Under the pieces are notes generated by a model. That model was given only the letters and a program-made list of their open reading frames with translations. It was not told the DNA's origin and searched no databases. Positions 767 through 11,348 of a DNA stretch of 20,000 bases are shown piece after piece. Source of the stretch: an uncultured delta proteobacterium (lineage in GTDB: Bacteria > Desulfobacterota > Desulfobacteria > Desulfobacterales > SG8-13); assembly GCA_963848135.1 (NCBI GenBank), contig CAWKCK010000001.1, forward strand, positions 244,175-264,174, in the 5' to 3' direction. The position numbers and the translations under genes are program-made. How positions within the stretch are numbered: the stretch's first letter is position 1; each line of letters starts with the position of its first letter.

Positions 767-2163
767 GGAGTTATAATTAAAAGTTGTGTTTAGAAGAAAA
801 GGCGGTGTATCCACCGGAAGATTGTTCGCGGCAGTCAACCGGCCACATTAAAAATGGAAAGGATACACCACCCATGAGCCAGAGATAATGTAATTGATTT
901 AAAAAAGCCAGAGCCGTTTATTGATGATCCGATCACAGAAATCATTCGTCAGGGAGCACGTGAAATTGTTAGCCCAGGCACTTGGAGACCGAGATCGAGC
1001 TTATTATCAGCCAGTATACCGATTTAAAAGACGAGATCGGCAGACAACGCATCGTCAGAAACGGTTACCTGCCAAAGCGCGAGATCCAGTCCGGAGTCGG
1101 TCCGATTGCGGTTAAAGCACCGCGCATTCGGGACCGTCATACAAATCCATCGGAAAGGATTCATTTCAGGTCCTCGATTCTGCCGCCGTATCTTCGCAAA
1201 ACCAAAAGCATCGAGAACGCTTGATTCCCTGGCTGTATCTTAAAGGGTATTTCCACCGGTGATTTTACCAGATGCCCTGGCCGCTCTGGTTGGCAAAGAT
1301 GCCCCTGGCCTGTCACCATCAACCATCAGCCGCTTAAAGGCCAGCTGGCAGCAGGATCTGGATCAGTGGCAAAAGCGCGATCTGAGCGGTAAACAGTACG
1401 TATATTTCTGGGTCGATGGCATTTACTGCAATGTGCGCATGGATGACAAACAGTGCCTGCTGGTCATCATTGGAGCCACCGAAGATGGTCACAAGGAATT
1501 GGTGGCCATCGAGGGCGGCTTCCGGGAAAGCGAATTATCCTGGACCCAGTTGTTGCTGGACCTGAAAGCTCGTGGTCTTGATCAAGGCCCTCAGCTGGCT
1601 ATAGGAGACGGCGGGCTTGGATTTTGGAAAGCACTCAGCCAGGTATATGCCGACACCCGTTGGCAGCGTTGCTGGGTTCACAAGACGGCTAATGTGCTCA
1701 ATAAACTGCCTAAAAGCCTGCAGGCAAAGGCGAAAGACAAGCTGCATCAGATTTGGATGGCCCCGGAAAAGGATGAGGCCCAACGTCACTTCGATGAATT
1801 TGTTCGACTCTACGAGGCCAAATATCCGAAGGCGGCAGAGTGTCTCCAGAAGGATCACGACGTGCTGCTGACCTTTTACGATTTTCCGGCTGAGCACTGG
1901 CGACACATTCGCACGACCAATCCGATTGAATCAACCTTTGCGACGGTAAGGTTGCGAACCAATAAAGTGCGCGGCTGTTTTTCAGCCCAGACCGTGATCA
2001 CGATGGCCTTCAAACTCTGTCAGTGTGCACAGAAACGGTGGATTCGATTACATCACCCTCAGCGCTTGGCAGAAGTAATTCGAGGAGTAAAATTCGTCAA
2101 TGGTGTTGAAGAAAAAAGGATCGCCGCCTAATTTCTCCATACACAACTATTGACTATATCTCC
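767..2163 (+). mobile_element. IS256-family insertion sequence (~1.4 kb)
   Basis: Imperfect terminal inverted repeats: left GGAGTTATAATTAAAAGTTGTGTT (767-790) vs reverse complement of right end GGAGATATAGTCAATAGTTGTGTA (2163-2140), 19/24 identical. They enclose a Mutator-type DDE transposase. No target-site duplication visible. Confidence 0.85.
874..2131 (+). pseudogene. IS256-family (Mutator-like DDE) transposase, several frameshifts in the 5' third (real or sequencing error)
   Basis: Fragments MSQ/DNVIDLKKPEPFIDDPITEIIRQGAR, IVRNGYLPKREIQSGVGPIAVKAPRIRDR and ORF 1259-2131 with YFWVDG, AIGDG, QRCWVHK, IRTTNPIES. Indels near 883, 962, 984 and 1215-1270. Confidence 0.9.
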
Positions 2164-2271
2164 AAGATTTCTTGATAATCATCTAAAAGGCACCTCCCGT
2201 TCGCAAATGACACAGCGATTCGTTATAAAGGGTTAACCGCAACCATAACCCTATAACGTAGGAGGTGCCCT

Positions 2272-3291
2272 ATGGAACTGTATGCCGGTCTGGATCTTCA
2301 TTCAAGAAATACCTACATCGGAATCATGGACGATGCATTGAATCGTGTTTTCAAAAAGCGTGTGGCCAATGACCTTGACCAGATTCTTCACACGTTAGAA
2401 CCCTTCAAAAAACGATTAAAGGGATTCGTTGTAGAGTCCACCTACAACTGGTACTGGCTCGTAGATGGCCTCATGGATGCGGGATATGGCTCTGCACACT
2501 TGGCCAACCCGTCGGCAATCAAACAATACGAAGGGCTAAAGTACAGTGACGATCAGCATGACGCCTTTTTTCTGGCCCAACTTCTCATACTCGGTATTTT
2601 GCCCGAAGGCTACATTTACCCAAAGCAACATCGCCCGGTACGGGACCTGGCACGCAAACGGATGTTTTTAGTCCGGCACAAGACCGCGAACATCTTGAGC
2701 CTGCAATCGCTCATTCAAAGATGCTGTGCAGTAAAAATAAGCACCAGTGACATCCGAAAGATGAACGTCGAAGCATTGGAAAGGTGGCTAAAAGAAGAGT
2801 ACCTGATTTTCTCTGCTCAAACCAGTTTGGATACAATAAATTTTCTCAAGCAGAAGATCAAAAGTATAGAGAAAGCAGTAATAGAAAGAGTAAAACTCAA
2901 AAAAGGGTTCAGGCAATTGCTGACAATACCCGGTATCGGTAACATTCTGGCTATGACTATCATGCTGGAAGTGGGTGACATCAATCGTTTTCCAAAGGTC
3001 GGCAATTTTGCTTCCTACTGTCGGTGCGTGCCATCCAAGCGGTTGTCCGACGGAAAAAGCAAGGGGTGTGGCAATCGTAAAAACGGCAATCGCTACCTGA
3101 GCTGGGCCCTCACTGAAGCCGCTCAATTGGGCCGTCGGTATAATGAACAGTTTAGACGATACTATAACCGCAAGGTTGCTCAGGCCAATACAAGTCTGGC
3201 GACCAAAGCGCTGGGCAACAAACTGGCCCGCATCTGCTACTATATCATGAGAGATCAGGTTCCCTTTCGTGAGGAGCTTCTTGCGCAATAG
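2272..3291 (+). CDS. IS110-family transposase/recombinase (DEDD RuvC-like + Tnp20 domain), 339 aa
   Basis: AGLDLH, VVESTYNW, KYSDDQHDA, LLTIPGIG, SDGK (candidate catalytic Ser), GNRYL. GGAGG RBS at 2261-2265. Confidence 0.95.
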   Translation: MELYAGLDLHSRNTYIGIMDDALNRVFKKRVANDLDQILHTLEPFKKRLKGFVVESTYNWYWLVDGLMDAGYGSAHLANPSAIKQYEGLKYSDDQHDAFFLAQLLILGILPEGYIYPKQHRPVRDLARKRMFLVRHKTANILSLQSLIQRCCAVKISTSDIRKMNVEALERWLKEEYLIFSAQTSLDTINFLKQKIKSIEKAVIERVKLKKGFRQLLTIPGIGNILAMTIMLEVGDINRFPKVGNFASYCRCVPSKRLSDGKSKGCGNRKNGNRYLSWALTEAAQLGRRYNEQFRRYYNRKVAQANTSLATKALGNKLARICYYIMRDQVPFREELLAQ

Positions 3292-3600
3292 TTTGGGACT
3301 GCAGCGGTGATCCTTTGCTATTGGTGGTTAAAATCCCTATTGCTTGGTTGGCCACCGCTGCACTCCCTACAAAATAGATTCAGGCGGGTGTCCGCTTTTT
3401 CGATCTGCCCTTGTCATAAGCTCGCAATGGCTGGCCCGAAAGGAGCCCTATCTCTTGTGACAACCCAATTGGCTTTGACAAGGTACCGATCTTTTTCTGG
3501 GGTCCGATTACGGACCAGGGGCTTTAGATATTCTCTCTTTGGCCTTGATCCTGATGGGTGCCTGTTAGCAGATTAAGTGACGCTGCACAGCAAACAAAAA
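3292..3600 (+). ncRNA. Predicted bridge/seek RNA of IS110 copy 1 (ends approximate)
   Basis: Stem TGCAGCGGTG (3300-3309)/CACCGCTGCA (3353-3362) closes a loop with segments matching the insertion flanks. Second stem CCTTGTCA (3409-3416)/TGACAAGG (3476-3483) has an internal GAAA hairpin. Hairpin GGTCCG-N4-CGGACC (3501-3516). Position downstream of tnp fits IS1111-type elements. Confidence 0.75.
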
Positions 3601-3864
3601 GAAATTTCGGGAGCAGGTAAAAAAATAGGACGAACGCCGTACTGAATTATAGTCCTGCAAAAAAATGTACCCCTTTTGCGATGGCGAGGTGTTTTTTGTT
3701 GACGGAAGCCTTTTAATGGGTGCCAATAGCTGGATTTTCAGTTTCCAAGGATTTTCTAAGTTTAGAATTTGGCTATCACAAGTCTTTGAGGTACATCCAC
3801 AGTTTCGATAGATAGCAGGTATCTTTAATTCAATTCGCTTTCAGGCAAAAGACTGTAATCTGAC

Positions 3865-4329
3865 TCACCGATTCTTAGAATCTTTACATTCAAGCTTCTG
3901 GATAATTGCCCTGCAAAAATCTTTTCTTTCTTTGTCCAAGCAATATTTGTGAATCGGGTTTAATAGTTTATATACCCCGTGTGTTTTCGGGACCACGGTG
4001 TGGACCACTTTGGTCGTATGGTCTTCTGAGAGCAACTGATAATCTATGTAGGATGAAAACAGAGGAAAAATAGAAAAGGTTGTTTGATCAATCGCAAACC
4101 TGACTGGAGGGTCGTATCTGACTATTTTCCCGACGCTTTTGCAACCAAAACGCATCTTGTCCACGAATGTTGTATTCAAACCTTTGGTTATTTCCGAAGT
4201 TATCGTTGTCCCATAGTAGACCCAACTGCATTGAGGGGCCCAATCATTGTAATGCGCGATGTCGCTGATAACTTCGAAAACTTCGTTGATTGGCTTTCTT
4301 ACAGCAAATTTTACCATTGCGGGTTTCAT
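3865..4329 (-). CDS. SRPBCC/START-like (polyketide cyclase/dehydrase family) ligand-binding protein, 154 aa
   Basis: N-terminal VRKPINEVFEVISDIAHYNDWAP signature, VRYDPPVRFAI and a C-terminal helix; typical size. Follows the cyclase gene after a 46 bp gap. Confidence 0.7.
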   Translation of the reverse strand: MKPAMVKFAVRKPINEVFEVISDIAHYNDWAPQCSWVYYGTTITSEITKGLNTTFVDKMRFGCKSVGKIVRYDPPVRFAIDQTTFSIFPLFSSYIDYQLLSEDHTTKVVHTVVPKTHGVYKLLNPIHKYCLDKERKDFCRAIIQKLECKDSKNR

Positions 4330-4375
4330 ATCTTAGCCTCGATGAATATTTGCATACCAGCGGCGACCCAGCCTT

Positions 4376-6154
4376 CTAAGCCATTAGGGGTATACCTGCT
4401 TTTCTTAAATCATTATGCTGGCGTTCCAAATGTGTTTTGTACTTATAGAGCCCATAGCTTTTATCCCATTCAAGGGAATAACCGGGAAACTCCCTCATGA
4501 CATTCCGTGCGGCCCGTCGTGCATCTTTCTCACGCCCAAGTCTTACGTAGTTCATAGCCAAGAGAGCATAATACAAATACAATAAATCGGTCTCATTCCG
4601 GCTAATGGACAAATCCTTGAACTGTTTCGCGGTCTCCAATGCTTCGCGAAACTTGTCCAAGTAATAGTAGCACAACGCAAGTTCCGCTAAAAACCAGGTG
4701 GGATAAAACGGTTGAAGGCGTAGAGCCTTTCTGACCATCACGATGGCTTCCTCGAATCTCCCATTAAACCGGAGTATATGCGCCATAACGGCATGGACAT
4801 CGGCGCTGTTTGGGCCCAAAACAATGGCTTGTTGTCCTTTTTCGACCGCCATGCTGTGCTCGCCATTGTAAAGGTGAAAAATTCCCGACAATATATGGAC
4901 CTCCGGATGATGATCATCCAAGGAACGCGCTCTTTCGACCATCAATATAGCATTTTGGAAAGATGCTTCACGGGAATCACTCCATCCAAACCTGGCTTCA
5001 AATATGTTTACCCATGCGATCAGGATGTACGGATCGATGTAACTTTCATCCGCTTCAATAGCCTCGTATGACAGCTGTTTCGCTTTGAAATGGCCCTCCT
5101 TGGTGATGCCCCACAGTTGGTTACGTGCCTGAAGATATTTCAGATACGACTCAAGGTTATTTGTCCTTTTAGCCCAGAATGCGGCCTGCTCGCCTTCAGT
5201 GAGTTTCACCTGCAAAGCTGTCAATACCTTGAAAGCGATTTCATCTTGCAAACTGAAGATATCATTAAGCTCACGATCATATCTATTCGCCCACAGGTGA
5301 TACCCTGATACGGCGTCCACTAGTTGAGCAGTTATTCGCAGCCGTTTTTTTGACTTTCGCAAACTACCCTCAAGGATGTACTGTACACCCAGTTCCAGAC
5401 TTATTCGCTGGACTTTTACCGACCGATTTTTATACACGAACGATGAATTGCGGGCGATTACGAAAATTTTCGGTACTTTAGAGAGTGCTGTAATGATCTC
5501 CTCAGCAATTCCGTCACTGATATATTCCTGCCCAGGATCTTCACTCAAATTGTCGAATGGCAAAACGGCGATGGAGGGATCTGTTGGGATCTCATGCTTT
5601 GTGTCCGAGCTTGGAATCGAGAAGTCTGAATTTTTCAAGACTCGAAAGACTTTGACTGGATCGGAAATATTCTTGACAGTGTGTTCGCCAATATATTCAT
5701 ATCCCAAATCAAGCTTATTTTTAATTTGGTCATATACGCTCTTCGAAAGACAAATACCTCCCGGATTTGAGAGGCTTTCAATCCTTGCCGCGATATTTAC
5801 AGCATCACCATAAATTCGTTCCCCCCTTATAATAATATCGCCCATGTTGATACCAATGCGGAATTCCATTTTCCGGTTTTGGGGCAACTCGGCATTCCTT
5901 AGGGCCAGTTGGTTCTGTACTTCAAGGGAAGCCTCAACAACGTCAACTGCACTGTCAAAAGATGCGAGAATATTGTCCCCTGGTGAATCAATAACGCGAC
6001 CACTGAATCGTGTAACTATTTCGGATATTAATCCCCGATACTCTTCTATGGTGGCGACTGTGGATAGCTCATTGTCCCCCATAAGTCGGCTATATCCTTT
6101 GACATCCGCGCTAAATATTGCCGAAAGTTTACGATTAGGTCTCTTGGATTCCAT
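4376..6154 (-). CDS. Class III adenylate/guanylate cyclase-domain protein with TolB_N-like domain and TPR repeats, 592 aa, no predicted TM helix
   Basis: SADVKGYSRLM (D17), IDSPGDN (D60), FRIGINMGD, IYGDAVNIAARIE (N120, R124); PSIAVLPFDNLS...VIARNSSF...LEGS...RITAQL; C-terminal TPR-like helices. Confidence 0.92.
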   Translation of the reverse strand: MESKRPNRKLSAIFSADVKGYSRLMGDNELSTVATIEEYRGLISEIVTRFSGRVIDSPGDNILASFDSAVDVVEASLEVQNQLALRNAELPQNRKMEFRIGINMGDIIIRGERIYGDAVNIAARIESLSNPGGICLSKSVYDQIKNKLDLGYEYIGEHTVKNISDPVKVFRVLKNSDFSIPSSDTKHEIPTDPSIAVLPFDNLSEDPGQEYISDGIAEEIITALSKVPKIFVIARNSSFVYKNRSVKVQRISLELGVQYILEGSLRKSKKRLRITAQLVDAVSGYHLWANRYDRELNDIFSLQDEIAFKVLTALQVKLTEGEQAAFWAKRTNNLESYLKYLQARNQLWGITKEGHFKAKQLSYEAIEADESYIDPYILIAWVNIFEARFGWSDSREASFQNAILMVERARSLDDHHPEVHILSGIFHLYNGEHSMAVEKGQQAIVLGPNSADVHAVMAHILRFNGRFEEAIVMVRKALRLQPFYPTWFLAELALCYYYLDKFREALETAKQFKDLSISRNETDLLYLYYALLAMNYVRLGREKDARRAARNVMREFPGYSLEWDKSYGLYKYKTHLERQHNDLRKAGIPLMA

Positions 6155-6563
6155 TTAAATGTCCGTTTGATATTCTCGTAATTTTAACCATCGAAATGAC
6201 ATCAGTATAATACGTATAGTAACTGCATTTCCGACGAAGACAGACTGAATAAATTGAATATAAACAATGGGTAGGTGAGCAAATACGTTGCTCAATGTTT
6301 ACACGGGGAACATTGAATCTAAAGGTGAAATTGTCAAGTATACAGGGATTTCATCAGCTTAGGAGCAGGCTTCGTATGTATCTAATATTGAAAACATTAA
6401 CCAAGTTCATAGATAACGATTTAAAAACTGTACTTAATAGTAAGACATGAAACTATGAACAGCTTGATAATCATCTAAAAGGCACCTCCCAATCGCAAAG
6501 GACATCGCGATTCGTTATAAAGGGTTAACCGCAATCATAACCCTATAATCCAGGAGGTGCCCT

Positions 6564-7583
6564 ATGGAACTGTATGCCGGTTTGGATCTTCATTCAAGAA
6601 ATACCTACATCGGAATCATGGACGATGCATTTAACCGTGTCTTCAAAAAACGTGTATCCAATGATCTTGACCAAATTCTTCATACTTTAAAGCCCTTCAA
6701 AAAACGACTAAAGGGATTTGTTGTTGAGTCCACCTACAACTGGTACTGGCTCGTCGATGGCCTCATGGGTGCCGGATATGGCATTGCGCACCTGGCCAAC
6801 CCGTCGGCCATCAAGCAATATGAAGGTCTAAAGTACAGTGACGATCAGCACGACGCTTTCTTTCTGGCCAAACTTCTCATACTCGGCATTTTGCCCGAAG
6901 GTTACATTTACCCAAAGGACCATCGTCCGGTGCGTGACCTGGCTCGCAAACGGATGTTTTTAGTCCGGCACAAGACCGCCAATATTTTGAGCCTGCAATC
7001 TTTCATTCAACGGTGTTGTTGCGTAAAAATAAGTACAGGTGATATTCGCAATCTGACCGTCGAAGCATTACAAGAGTGGTTAAAAGAAGAGTATTTGGTT
7101 ATCTCGGCCCAAACCAGTTTGGATACAATCAACTTTCTGAAGGAGAAGATTAAACGTTTAGAGAAAGCGATCATACAGAGAGTCAAACTCAAAAAAGAGT
7201 TCGGGCAATTGCTGACAATACCCGGTATCGGTAACATCCTGGCAATGACTATCATGTTGGAAGTGGGTGACATCAAGCGTTTTCCAAAGGTCGGTAATTT
7301 TGCTTCCTACTGTCGGTGTGTACCATCGAAGCGGTTATCCGACGGAAAAAGCAAGGGGTGTGGCAATCGTAAAAACGGCAATCGCTACCTGAGTTGGGCG
7401 CTCACTGAAGCCGCTCAATTGGGCCGTCGGTATAATGAACCGTTCAGACGATACTATAACCGCAAGGCCGCTCAGGCCAATACAAGCCTTGCGACCAAAG
7501 CGCTGGGTAACAAACTGGCCCGCATCTGCTACTATATCATGAGAGATCAAGTCCCCTTTCGGGAGGAGCTTATTGCGCACTAG
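6564..7583 (+). CDS. IS110-family transposase/recombinase, 339 aa (about 91% identical to copy 1; 29 differences by manual count)
   Basis: Same DEDD and SDGK motifs; collinear with 2272-3291. Confidence 0.95.
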   Translation: MELYAGLDLHSRNTYIGIMDDAFNRVFKKRVSNDLDQILHTLKPFKKRLKGFVVESTYNWYWLVDGLMGAGYGIAHLANPSAIKQYEGLKYSDDQHDAFFLAKLLILGILPEGYIYPKDHRPVRDLARKRMFLVRHKTANILSLQSFIQRCCCVKISTGDIRNLTVEALQEWLKEEYLVISAQTSLDTINFLKEKIKRLEKAIIQRVKLKKEFGQLLTIPGIGNILAMTIMLEVGDIKRFPKVGNFASYCRCVPSKRLSDGKSKGCGNRKNGNRYLSWALTEAAQLGRRYNEPFRRYYNRKAAQANTSLATKALGNKLARICYYIMRDQVPFREELIAH

Positions 7584-7893
7584 TTTGGGACTGCAGCGGT
7601 GATCCCTACATATTGGTGGTGAAAATCCCTGTTGCTTGGTTGGTACACCGCTGCACTCCCTACAAAATAAATTCAGGCGGGTGTCCGCTTTTTCGATCTG
7701 CCCTTGTCATAAGCTCGCAATGGCTGGCCCGAAAGGAGCCCTATCTCTTGTGACAACCCAATTGGCTTTGACAAGGTACCGATCTTTTTCTGGGGTCCGG
7801 TATCGGACCAGGGGCTTTAGATATTCTCTCTTTGGCCTTGATCCTGATGGGTGCCTGTTAGCAGATTAAGTGACGCTGCACAGCAAACAAAAA
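7584..7893 (+). ncRNA. Predicted bridge/seek RNA of IS110 copy 2 (ends approximate)
   Basis: Same stems as copy 1 (7592-7601/7646-7655; 7702-7709/7769-7776). Sequence changes fall mostly in the first loop and in hairpin loops. Confidence 0.75.
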
Positions 7894-8118
7894 GAAATTT
7901 CGGGAGCAGGTAAAAAAATAGAACGAACGTCGAACTGAATTTTGTTCCTGCAAAAAAATATACCCCTTTTGCGATGGCGTGGTGTTTTTTGTTGACGGAA
8001 GCCTTTTAATGGGTGCCAATATATTCACCGAGGGCAAATGGCGGTGGACCCCAATATAGAGTGGTCGGCTAAAATTCTGCGAAACTTATGATACCATTCA
8101 AATATCTGCATGATCGCA

Positions 8119-8152
8119 AAACTACATATATGTCAGATGGTATATGTAGTTT
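8119..8152. repeat. Perfect 12-bp inverted repeat, 10-nt spacer (operator or hairpin)
   Basis: AAACTACATATA (8119-8130) / TATATGTAGTTT (8141-8152). Confidence 0.6.
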
Positions 8153-9424: not shown

Positions 9425-11348
9425 ATGGCTGATGAGGACTACAAACGCAAACTTACCGCCATCCTCAGTGCTGACGTCGCTGGCTACAGCCGCCTCATGG
9501 GTGATGATGAGACGGCAACTGTCAGCACCCTCAAATCACATCGCAACATTTTTTACGAAAAAGTTCAGGCATTCAACGGGCGAGTTGTGGATTCCCCAGG
9601 TGATAATATATTAGCGGAATTTAGAAGCATCGTGGATGCGGTCTCTTGTGCGGTGGAAATCCAGCACGTGCTCAGAGAACAGAACGAGAAACTCTCAGAA
9701 GACCGCAAAATGGACTTCAGAATCGGTGTCAATCTCGGCGATGTAATCCATGATGAGGATCGAATCTATGGCGACGGTGTGAACATTGCCGCAAGGGTCG
9801 AAGGGTTGGCAGATCCGGGTGGCATTGCAATCTCAGGAACCGCTTTCGACAATGTCAGAAATAAACTCGATTTTGGTTATCAATTTTCAGGAGAGCACGC
9901 CGTTAAGAATATTGTCAACCCTGTAAGGGTATATAAAGTATTAACGGAGCCGGAATTTGCTGGAAAGGTTATTGGGGAAAAGCGTTTTTTAGGATGGATG
10001 TCACGCAAACTGGCTATGTCGGCTATTTTGGCATCAGCCATAATAATTGGCGGGTTGGTTTCATACTACATCTACCTTCATCAATCCGGAAGAATAGAGC
10101 CTGCATCGATAGAAAAGATGGCGTTTCCATTACCGGATGAACCTTCTATTGCCGTTTTGCCGTTTGACAATATGAGTAAAGATCCTGAGGAAGAATACTT
10201 CAGTGATGGTATAACAGAACAAATTATAACCTCACTTTCAAATGCACCCTACCTGTTCGTCATTGCACGAAACTCCTCCTTTGCCTATAAAAATAAACCA
10301 ACAAAAGTCCAACAAATCGCTGAAGAGCTTGGAGTTCAATATTTACTTGAGGGAAGTGTATCGAGGTCTGATGATCGTGTGCGAATAACAGCTCAGCTAA
10401 TTGATGCGCTTACAGGACGCCATCTATGGGCTGAAACCTATGATCGAAAAGGTAAAGATATTTTTAAAATTTATGACGAAATCACGATGAAAATAGTAGC
10501 AGAACTTCAAGTGGAGCTATCAGAAGCAGATCTCGGTCGGTCGATTTCAGTAAAAACAAATAACCTCAAAGCATATGAAAAATATTTGAGAGGCCGAAAA
10601 CACCTTTCTGTCAGAACAGTGGGTGATACGCTCGAAGCTCCAAATTAGGCCAAGAGGCGATTGAATTAGATCCTAAGTATGGAGCCGCTTACCAGTTACT
10701 TGCCAGAACGTATCTTGACGAAATTTTTTTCCATCGAGTTTCATCGAGGGATGAATTCCTTGAAAAAACGGAAGACTTAATCGATAAATCAATCGAATTT
10801 AGCGGCAAGGATTCTCAAACCCATGAGTTGCTTTGTACTCTATTTTTCTTTAAAAAAAATTTTGCTCAAGCCATTGTAGAGGGCCAAAAAGCTATCGACC
10901 TAAACCCCAACTCTGCCCATTCTCATTTTATTTACGGGATGATTCTGGGGCTGTCCGGAAGGCATGACGAGGCTATTCCGGTTTTGAAAAAGGCCATTCG
11001 GTTAAATCCTGTTGCACCGATAGCTTATCTTAATCATTTAGCCTTTGCTTATACATATAAAGAGCAATATGAAAAAGCGATACCTTTATGGAAACAAACG
11101 CTCGAACGCAACCCTGATTACTATTTGCCCATATGGGTTTGACAGTTGCATATCAGCTTTCGGGTCAACCGGATAAGGCCCGTGAGTCTGCCGCTGAATT
11201 AATTCGCGTAAAACCAGGATTATCAGTATCGGTCCTCGAAAAACGAGCTATCCAACAACACAAGGAAAGCAGAGAGCTATTTTTCAAAGGTTTGCGCGGA
11301 GCCGGACTTCCTGAATACAGATCAGACAAAACTGTAAAGAATCCATGA
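9425..11348 (+). CDS. Class III cyclase-TM-TolB_N-TPR protein (~640 aa when joined), split by two apparent 1-nt deletions near 10640 and 11126
   Basis: GGAGG RBS; SADVAGYSRLM, VVDSPGDN, RIYGDGVNIAARVE; hydrophobic LAMSAILASAIIIGGLVSYYIYL; PSIAVLPFDNMS. After a shift at ~10640 the frame reads KLGQEAIELDPKYGAAYQLLA into ORF 10828-11142, then ORF 11133-11348 (TPRs; ends GLRGAGLPE, like LRKAGIP in the paralog). Confidence 0.85.

Follow-up and report, generated by a model that had tools for sequence, protein, structure and literature searches.

RNA-guided recombinases of the IS110/IS1111 group are being developed as programmable genome-insertion tools. In the descriptions closest to the present case, a short guide RNA, the seekRNA, has been assigned to the 3' non-coding end of IS1111 elements such as ISEc11, ISPa11 and ISKpn4/ISPst6 (Siddiquee et al. 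2024, PMC11187229), and a bridge RNA to IS621 (PMC11208160, PMC11208158). We have analyzed a stretch of 20,000 nucleotides (nt) from an uncultured delta proteobacterium of lineage SG8-13 (CAWKCK010000001.1, positions 244,175-264,174), which is called the window below and whose own numbering is used for coordinates. It contains two IS1111-type elements, copy 1 and copy 2, each with a transposase gene (tnp) followed by a hairpin. As a whole, they are very probably active-looking RNA-guided DEDD recombinases of the IS1111 branch, in which a guide hairpin is directed at a shared core target. The following sequences have been used for comparison: the own genome of the bacterium (6.03 Mb in 18 contigs); the best 80 of 578 confirmed relatives of the element, with 51-89% amino acid identity and with hosts that are mostly Desulfobacterales but also include Nitrospirota and others; and matches from public sequencing runs, which are assembled contigs only.

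The elements share with ISEc11 a transposase of 339 amino acids and with the other IS1111 elements named above a long 3' non-coding region, subterminal repeats, a hairpin RNA of ~80 nt directly after tnp, the same order of guide strands, a predicted junction promoter, and a targeting of repeats, which are REP for ISPa11 and one end of attC for ISKpn4/ISPst6 (PMC11187229). They differ from ISEc11, ISPa11 and ISKpn4/ISPst6 in that the best named match is only “ISGsu4 family” at 45.6%, the subterminal repeat is of 8 base pairs (bp), and the end extensions are 9/5 instead of 7/3. Other differences from this group are a much longer non-coding end (431 nt) with a second conserved module and an apparently different repeat as the target. 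With IS621, the DEDD plus Tnp domains, a dinucleotide core, two guide strands on opposite DNA strands, and two-base extensions beyond the core that match the other partner are common (PMC11208160, PMC11208158); here AU or GU next to the left-guide strand matches AT of the left end, and the bases next to the second module match target positions +1/+2. In contrast to IS621, the RNA lies in the right end and not in the left, the guide strands follow in reverse order, the core dinucleotide is TG instead of CT, and the candidate donor-side module is located far from the target loop, with no second donor strand found by an exact-word search.

These comparisons add no new principle, but the family-level data set and the candidate donor-side guide are of use. 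The family is a well-sampled natural series with a fixed scaffold, a TG core, a target of 5 + 2 + about 6-8 nt, and at least five target classes, and is thus of help in working out what rules govern guide length and the tolerance of mismatches. The second module concerns a point that lies between the two 2024 descriptions, namely whether IS1111-type elements have a donor-side guide or none.

Guide hairpins and their target flanks

The hairpin that follows tnp is a conserved RNA structure. In 40 of the 80 relatives, the ~80 nt downstream of the stop codon give a clean alignment, and RNAalifold places 15 pairs on it, 12 of them with compensatory double changes. A covariance model made from the same alignment (R1) found 97 matches at E <=0.001 in 86 sources, of which 96 are on the transposase strand and one is a weak antisense match. 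Each window element has one strong match on the plus strand, as well as a weak antisense match over the hairpin (24.4 and 22.3 bits), and no Rfam family was matched in the window. The closing stem, CTGCAGCGGTG/CACCGCTGCA, is invariant between the two copies, as a first-pass annotation of this stretch had stated, and the differences between the copies in the 3' non-coding end are concentrated in the first hairpin, on the 5' strand of its loop.

The same annotation had claimed that each loop corresponds to the insertion site of its own element, and its individual matches are all present in the sequence. For the 5' strand, GCTATTGG at 3317-3324 is the exact reverse complement of CCAATAGC at 3723-3730, and ATATTGG at 7610-7616 that of CCAATAT at 8016-8022; for the 3' strand, ATTGCTTG at 3339-3346 is identical in 7/8 positions to the left flank plus core, ATTTCTTG (2167-2174), and GCTTG at 7634-7638 is identical to 6462-6466. 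Two copies alone give no verdict on whether such agreement exceeds chance, and the comparison proposed at that time, of loop and flank among genomic and homologous copies, has been carried out on the family. Flanks are readable in most loci, as both ends of the element are conserved family-wide, and a register shift of 0 or 1 was permitted equally for self and cross comparisons. The 5' loop strand scored 6.15 against the first 9 nt of its own right flank and 4.14 against those of others (74 unique pairs), and the 3' loop strand scored 4.69 and 2.31, respectively, against the 7 nt left of the core (55 unique pairs); on each side, the observed value was reached by 0/2000 permutations. Across relatives, therefore, the match goes far beyond permutation, and the loop strands are the guides, the 5' strand for the right flank and the 3' strand for the left flank plus core. 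Since relatives are not independent, these figures overstate the significance, which we count among the points against our explanation below; several independent target switches are visible among the relatives despite their kinship.

The length of the target can be read from individual positions. Self-match on the right side from +1 to +9 is 0.93, 0.97, 0.88, 0.77, 0.67, 0.58, 0.45, 0.47, and 0.32, against a cross-match of ~0.25-0.47 except for 0.97 at the invariant +2, and match on the left side from -3 to -7 is 0.91, 0.96, 0.73, 0.76, and 0.84, with background at -8. The signal thus covers +1 to +8 on the right and -3 to -7 on the left, and the effective target is 5 nt + TG + about 6-8 nt. 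Sub-families switch both sides together, giving the classes CTTG|CCA, CGTG|CC, TTTG|ACAG, CTTG|ACCCC, and AATG|TCCT. Covariation is found also among close relatives: in the close CC-type group at +4 to +9, self was 3.65 and cross 2.61 (23 pairs), and for relatives only 3.71 and 2.53, with 0/5000 permutations in both cases. The top-strand match stands 5' of the bottom-strand match, which is the order reported for IS1111 seekRNAs (PMC11187229).

A hairpin that begins directly after a stop codon and has a strong stem could also be a mere terminator or attenuator of the transposase gene, with flank matches that arise by chance. This is contradicted by the covariation of the loop strands with both flanks (0/2000 permutations each) and by a stem that covaries independently of the guide-flank match, and we regard it as extremely improbable.

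Two tandem seekRNA-like hairpins, 110-175 nt apart and with slightly different guide strands, are found in some relatives (L048 1031/1206; L054 2220/2391; L055 1289/1459; L078/L079 2220/2334; L088 2220/2328; L051; L061). As both hairpins belong to the target type, a donor loop is not among them.

The first-pass annotation had also called the window copies a natural re-targeting pair, that is, two sub-lineages sent to different targets by selected loop differences. Such re-direction of an IS1111 seekRNA, between ISEc11 and ISXne4, is already in print (PMC11187229), and that pair is similar to the present family in that the stem is kept while loop strands have changed to fit the flanks, which is seen here between sub-families. 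The published pair, in contrast, has 3/13 target bases in common, whereas the window copies have the whole core target in common and differ only at the rim: both reconstructed targets contain CTTGCCAATA; the left guides are the same over the effective length (UUGCUUG), the sole difference being at -8, where the family has no signal; and the right guides are the same at +1 to +6 and differ only at +7 to +9, positions of little family signal (self-match 0.45, 0.47, and 0.32 vs cross-match 0.32, 0.27, and 0.24). The part of the claim that stood is therefore that the loops match their own flanks, and the part that did not is the difference of target, which is essentially one.

The other copies in the own genome are divided on this question. 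Loops of type 1 are present in copies A, B, D, E, and F, the type-2 right-flank guide in C, G, and H, and type 3 in fragment I, and copy G combines the type-2 right-flank guide with the apical loop and left-flank guide of type 1. For the 9 non-independent copies at +4 to +9, self was 3.56 and cross 2.92, a difference reached by 217/5000 permutations with Watson-Crick pairs and by 106/5000 when G-U pairs were included; a correlation between loop and flank within the genome is thus present but weak. At +7 to +9, the own guide type fits better in five copies (A, B, F, C, H), ties in D and E, and fits worse in G, which has a type-2 right guide yet occupies a copy-1-like site and so contradicts the pattern. 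C and H, the two copies whose whole hairpin is of the copy-2 type, are both inserted in the second repeat family, but their repeats are homologous, and they count as about one event among 9 copies in all. The evidence for re-targeting between the two window copies is weak, and we consider a re-targeted pair rather unlikely; the loop differences at the weakly constrained rim of the guide may at most bias the choice between repeat sub-families.

The second module of the 3' end

Alignment of the whole non-coding end of close relatives has revealed further near-invariant blocks, and one of these, the second module, reproduces the right end together with the core and the initial bases of the flank. 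The two bases after its ...GGGTG equal flank positions +1/+2 in 57/59 elements, in the classes AC, CC, and TC and with L042 and L045 as exceptions, and 8 changes of flank label are required on the transposase tree, where shuffled labels require 21.4 on average. A single lineage with GGATG at the right end has GGATG in the module too (10/10 rows). This tracking of a flank base by the second module is new here.

A corresponding arrangement is seen in the left-guide strand of the hairpin, in which the guide is followed by the core UG, by a dinucleotide that fits the initial AT of the left end (GU in the present elements, AU in most of the family), and then by UGG. Handshake guides and handshake dinucleotides of the same logic have been described for IS621 (PMC11208158). 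Because the layout follows this logic, mirrored in the reversed IS1111 arrangement, the second module is most likely a donor-side guide with a handshake to the target. A pairing of the module with the left end was also considered and rejected, since the left-end GGCACC is unchanged when the module base changes. No sign that the module is a copy of the first hairpin was detected, as R1 searches with filters off gave as other matches only weak antisense ones over the hairpin.

The boundaries with their core, the conservation of the RNA structure, the covariation between guides and flanks, and the tracking by the second module are shown by the data above. From the sequences we infer the production and binding of the RNA, the circle with its junction promoter, and the role of the second module, and the proposed course is as follows. 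The element would excise as a circle, whose joined ends would create a promoter, TTGACG-17-GATAAT, and the 3' non-coding end would yield a hairpin RNA of ~80 nt, a seekRNA that presumably corresponds to the target-binding loop of bridge RNAs. In the internal loop of this RNA, the 5' strand would pair with the top strand of the target right of the core, from +1 to about +8 (CCAATAGC), and the 3' strand (UUGCU-UG), whose sense is that of the core and of the 5 nt to its left, would pair with the bottom strand. Insertion would take place in one orientation at CTTG^CCA, the exchanged core being TG, at the edges of the ~100-nt repeats that appear to punctuate cassette-like arrays. The conserved module ~250 nt downstream, with right end, core, and first flank bases, would serve as the donor-side guide with its handshake to the target. 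The window copies would then represent two sub-lineages with a common core target and rim differences at +7 to +9.

Several points weigh against this explanation, in addition to the kinship of the relatives. Five type-1 copies with identical loops occupy five different flanks, of which only 2-5/6 positions are matched at +4 to +9, and this implies a tolerant guide, mobilization in trans, or drift of the flanks. An exact-word search gave no guide for the left end (the right half of the donor); its best match was a 7-mer, which 184/300 shuffles reached. A T-rich possible terminator (3383-3400), which is absent from the terminator-scan listing, lies between the hairpin and the second module. The subterminal inverted repeat is perfect over 8 bp only (9/11 when extended), a length that falls inside the range of 7-17 bp given by Durrant but below the 11-13 bp given by Siddiquee for IS1111 repeats, and the extensions outside this 8-bp repeat, core excluded, are 9 and 5 nt where IS1111 elements have 7 and 3; the asymmetry of 4 nt is the same as in IS1111, and 7/3 results if the two mismatched positions are counted into the repeat. 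A search for a consensus fold of the module gave only 4 pairs and no covariation, and single-sequence folds agree only on an apical hairpin. The short seekRNA described for ISEc11 works without such a module (PMC11187229).

The last two points speak also for a different view of the module, in which it is not an RNA guide but a relic, at the DNA level, of a right-end duplication, or else a site of protein binding. The module does resemble the right end, with GCCTT...ATGGGTG in both, and a fresh partial duplication of the right end exists in L020. A relic, however, would not go on tracking a base outside the element, as the module does with flank +1 (57/59 elements, 8 changes on the tree), the module stays nearly constant next to sequence that diverges, and handshake dinucleotides of similar logic are documented for IS621 (PMC11208158). 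We therefore judge the relic or binding site unlikely and prefer the donor-side guide. As a tentative extension, which we put forward as possible and not as probable, three RNA sites would co-evolve, namely the right-flank guide, the left-flank-plus-core guide, and the distal donor-side module with right end, core, and handshake base. Re-targeting would then need coordinated change at all of them, and the family would be specialized on the boundaries of a cassette array other than a canonical integron, with sub-lineages of one genome tuned to different repeat sub-families.

Element identity, TG core, and target repeats

Judged from their sequences, both elements are intact IS110-family members of the IS1111 type, in agreement with the first-pass annotation, which had described IS110/IS1111 elements with a 3' guide RNA and two intact tnp genes. 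Both transposase frames are open, have 339 amino acids, and are identical in 311/339 residues, and the alignment of the two elements has 94% column identity (91% by megablast and blastn). The Pfam domains DEDD_Tnp_IS110 (PF01548, E 9.7e-11) and Transposase_20 (PF02371, E 1.1e-19) were found in both proteins, and the NCBIfam model NF033542, “IS110 family RNA-guided transposase”, gave 188.9 bits against a cut-off of 140. The transposases of IS621 (8wt6, E 1.2e-8) and ISCro4 (E 4.2e-7) are the only relatives with solved structures. In the alignment to IS621, for which the residues D102/D105/S241 are reported (PMC11208158), a D-x-x-D pair and the serine of the Tnp domain stand opposite those of IS621, and this serine is followed by D, not G. 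The “ISGsu4 family” match mentioned above is the nearest named annotation found and comes from plasmid records, in which the best match of any kind has 50.6%. The protein length is within the 330-350 amino acids of IS1111-type transposases (PMC11187229), and in copy 1 the 431 nt of non-coding sequence downstream of tnp (3292-3722) compare with 97 nt upstream (2175-2271). The word “sister”, which had been used for the two elements, does not hold strictly, because copy 2 groups with L020, from another genome, and not with copy 1 on the transposase tree (support 95/80).

A promoter that forms only on circularization, TTGACG-17-GATAAT, is predicted at the joined ends, and its -35 box reads TTGACA in relatives. 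Junction promoters have been described for ISEc11 (PMC11187229).

In the own genome, the element is present in 8 full copies and 3 fragments with common ends, each copy having ...CTTG|ATAATC at its left junction and ...AATGGGTG|CCA at its right junction. Among the 39 members of the main repeat family that reach the 5' edge of its profile, 5 are occupied, 25 are empty with exact CTTG|CCA, and 9 are empty with deviations; unoccupied members with uninterrupted CTTGCCA, e.g., ...TTTCTTGCCAATACC..., are found also in the congeners G006 and G007. Metagenome contigs diverge from the window at 2168/2170 and at 3725, and one contig matches only from 3721 on, with foreign sequence ending ...CTTGCT before that position. 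Because unoccupied paralogous sites carry contiguous CTTGCCA, this proves that insertion adds ATAATC...GGGTG and that the ambiguous dinucleotide TG is the core, by which the boundaries are settled where the first-pass annotation had put them. The alternative that CTTG and CCA belong to the element, so that there is neither a TG core nor site specificity, is compatible with the CTTG...CCA at the edges of every copy, but is contradicted by these empty sites, and its probability is practically negligible. An orthologous empty site of copy 1 was not found in 40 relatives; just the ~100-nt repeat was matched, and this in 2/15 same-genus genomes searched.

Some irregular ends were also observed. Fragment J (C18:594483-594686 of the own genome) is a left-end fragment of 204 nt that passes without interruption into a normal right-flank repeat; the junction lies within the transposase gene, at an internal ...GTGTGGCCAAT (window equivalent ~2363-2373) that resembles the right half of the target, and the fragment may have arisen by deletion at this pseudo-target inside the element. 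In L020 (~3330-3417), a tandem duplication covers the final ~50 nt of the right end, so that ...AATGGGTG is followed by a second ...AATGGGTG and then by the flank. The right-junction dinucleotide is CA in L031 and L034 (GGGCA) and CG in L045, L046, L048, and L091 (GGGCG), while these relatives have TG at the left junction where readable, and TG also in the internal module. The CA variant is perfectly complementary to the UG located just after the right-flank guide.

The right flanks in the own genome belong to repeat families, and the profile of the main family has 65 members, which form same-orientation clusters and are 0.5-4 kb apart. Insertions are orientation-specific and lie at the 5' edge of these ~100-nt repeats. 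Members of the IS1111 group usually target repeats, such as REP, attC, or transposon ends (PMC11187229). The repeats separate unrelated genes, such as those for an amidohydrolase, PEBP, a beta-lactamase fold, an RraA-like protein, radical SAM, MscS, a nitroreductase, and a tyrosine recombinase, and tyrosine recombinase genes are present in or beside the arrays as singles of 277 amino acids and in groups of two or three. No integron integrase was found above the cut-off in the own genome, the best score being 93.5 bits against 265, and the target repeat has no inverted end pair by eye and no consensus RNA fold. These arrays may be a cassette system other than a canonical integron. The elements lie at the boundaries within these cassette-like arrays, which they mark and may disrupt. 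On inspection by eye, the two halves of the repeat recombine in various ways around ...GATACG|ATCTGGCTATC.... A search of three repeat arrays against Rfam gave a c-di-GMP-I riboswitch as the sole match (L101 10533-10647, C5 ~37.5 kb; 46.5 bits vs a gathering threshold of 35).

Feature coordinates and neighboring genes

The features of the two elements and of the repeat arrays are listed in Table 1.

Table 1. Positions of the element features in the window and of repeat arrays in the own genome (contig names begin with C)
Feature	Position	Strand	Remark
IS1111-type element, copy 1	2175..3722	+	ATAATC...GGGTG, 1548 bp, right-hand TG included
IS1111-type element, copy 2	6467..8015	+	1549 bp
Transposase gene, copy 1	2272..3291	+	339 amino acids; PF01548, PF02371, NF033542, IS621 match
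Transposase gene, copy 2	6564..7583	+	339 amino acids; 311/339 residues same as copy 1
Core TG, left junction copy 1	2173..2174	.	empty sites read CTTG|CCA
Core TG, right junction copy 1	3721..3722	.	empty sites and loose end of a contig
Core TG, left junction copy 2	6465..6466	.	empty paralogous sites
Core TG, right junction copy 2	8014..8015	.	empty paralogous sites
Putative seekRNA / target-binding hairpin, copy 1	3292..3374	+	R1 75.3 bits; fold -40.2 kcal/mol, z -3.1
Putative seekRNA / target-binding hairpin, copy 2	7584..7667	+	R1 76.5 bits; fold -41.1 kcal/mol, z -2.9
Right-flank guide, copy 1 (GCTATTGG)	3317..3324	+	5' loop strand; complementary to top strand of 3723-3730
Left-flank guide plus core, copy 1 (UUGCU-UG)	3340..3346	+	3' loop strand; same sense as left flank
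Right-flank guide, copy 2 (CATATTGG)	7609..7616	+	5' loop strand
Left-flank guide plus core, copy 2 (TTGCTTG)	7632..7638	+	3' loop strand
Left target flank, copy 1 (TTTCT)	2168..2172	+	5 nt read by left guide; 4/5 same as UUGCU
Right target flank, copy 1 (CCAATAGC)	3723..3730	+	opens a ~100-nt repeat
Right target flank, copy 2 (CCAATATA)	8016..8023	+	opens second repeat family, common to copy H
Short GC hairpin then T run, possible 3' end of short RNA	3383..3400	+	fold; T run kept in close relatives
Second module, copy 1: CCTTGATCC-T-GATGGGTG-CC-TG	3543..3564	+	copy of right end, core, first 2 nt of right flank
Second module, copy 2	7836..7857	+	same block in sequence alignment
Left subterminal inverted repeat TAAAAGGC	2184..2191	+	9 nt in from end; reverse complement of 3708-3715; kept in relatives
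Right subterminal inverted repeat GCCTTTTA	3708..3715	+	read from sequence
TTGACG, -35 box of predicted circle-junction promoter	3699..3704	+	17 nt to GATAAT (G 3722 + 2175-2179)
~100-nt repeats in window	3723-3830 and 8016-8140		
Repeat arrays, own genome	C17:30-45 kb (L102), C17:1213-1248 kb (L100), C5:27.7-47 kb (L101)		
Further repeat arrays, own genome	C1:70-79 kb; C18:445-456, 536-552, 586-608 kb		

Upstream of copy 1, an open reading frame (ORF) for a Mutator/IS256-type transposase (1259-2131, plus strand) covers positions 131-362 only of the 379 of its profile, looks 5'-truncated, and stops 43 nt before the element. The left flank of 150 nt of copy 1, which overlaps the 3' end of this ORF, has no other match in the own genome, and a -35-like TTGACT is present at 2150, 18 nt from the GATAAT of copy 1. 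Between the two elements, a small SRPBCC-like ORF is located at 3865-4329 (minus strand), and the stretch 3723-4400, which covers it and the first bases of the adjacent cyclase gene, has no relative in 40 related genomes beyond the ~100-nt repeat. Copy 2 is flanked by genes with adenylate/guanylate cyclase domains at 4376-6154 (minus strand) and 9425-10648 (plus strand), one of which has TPR repeats.

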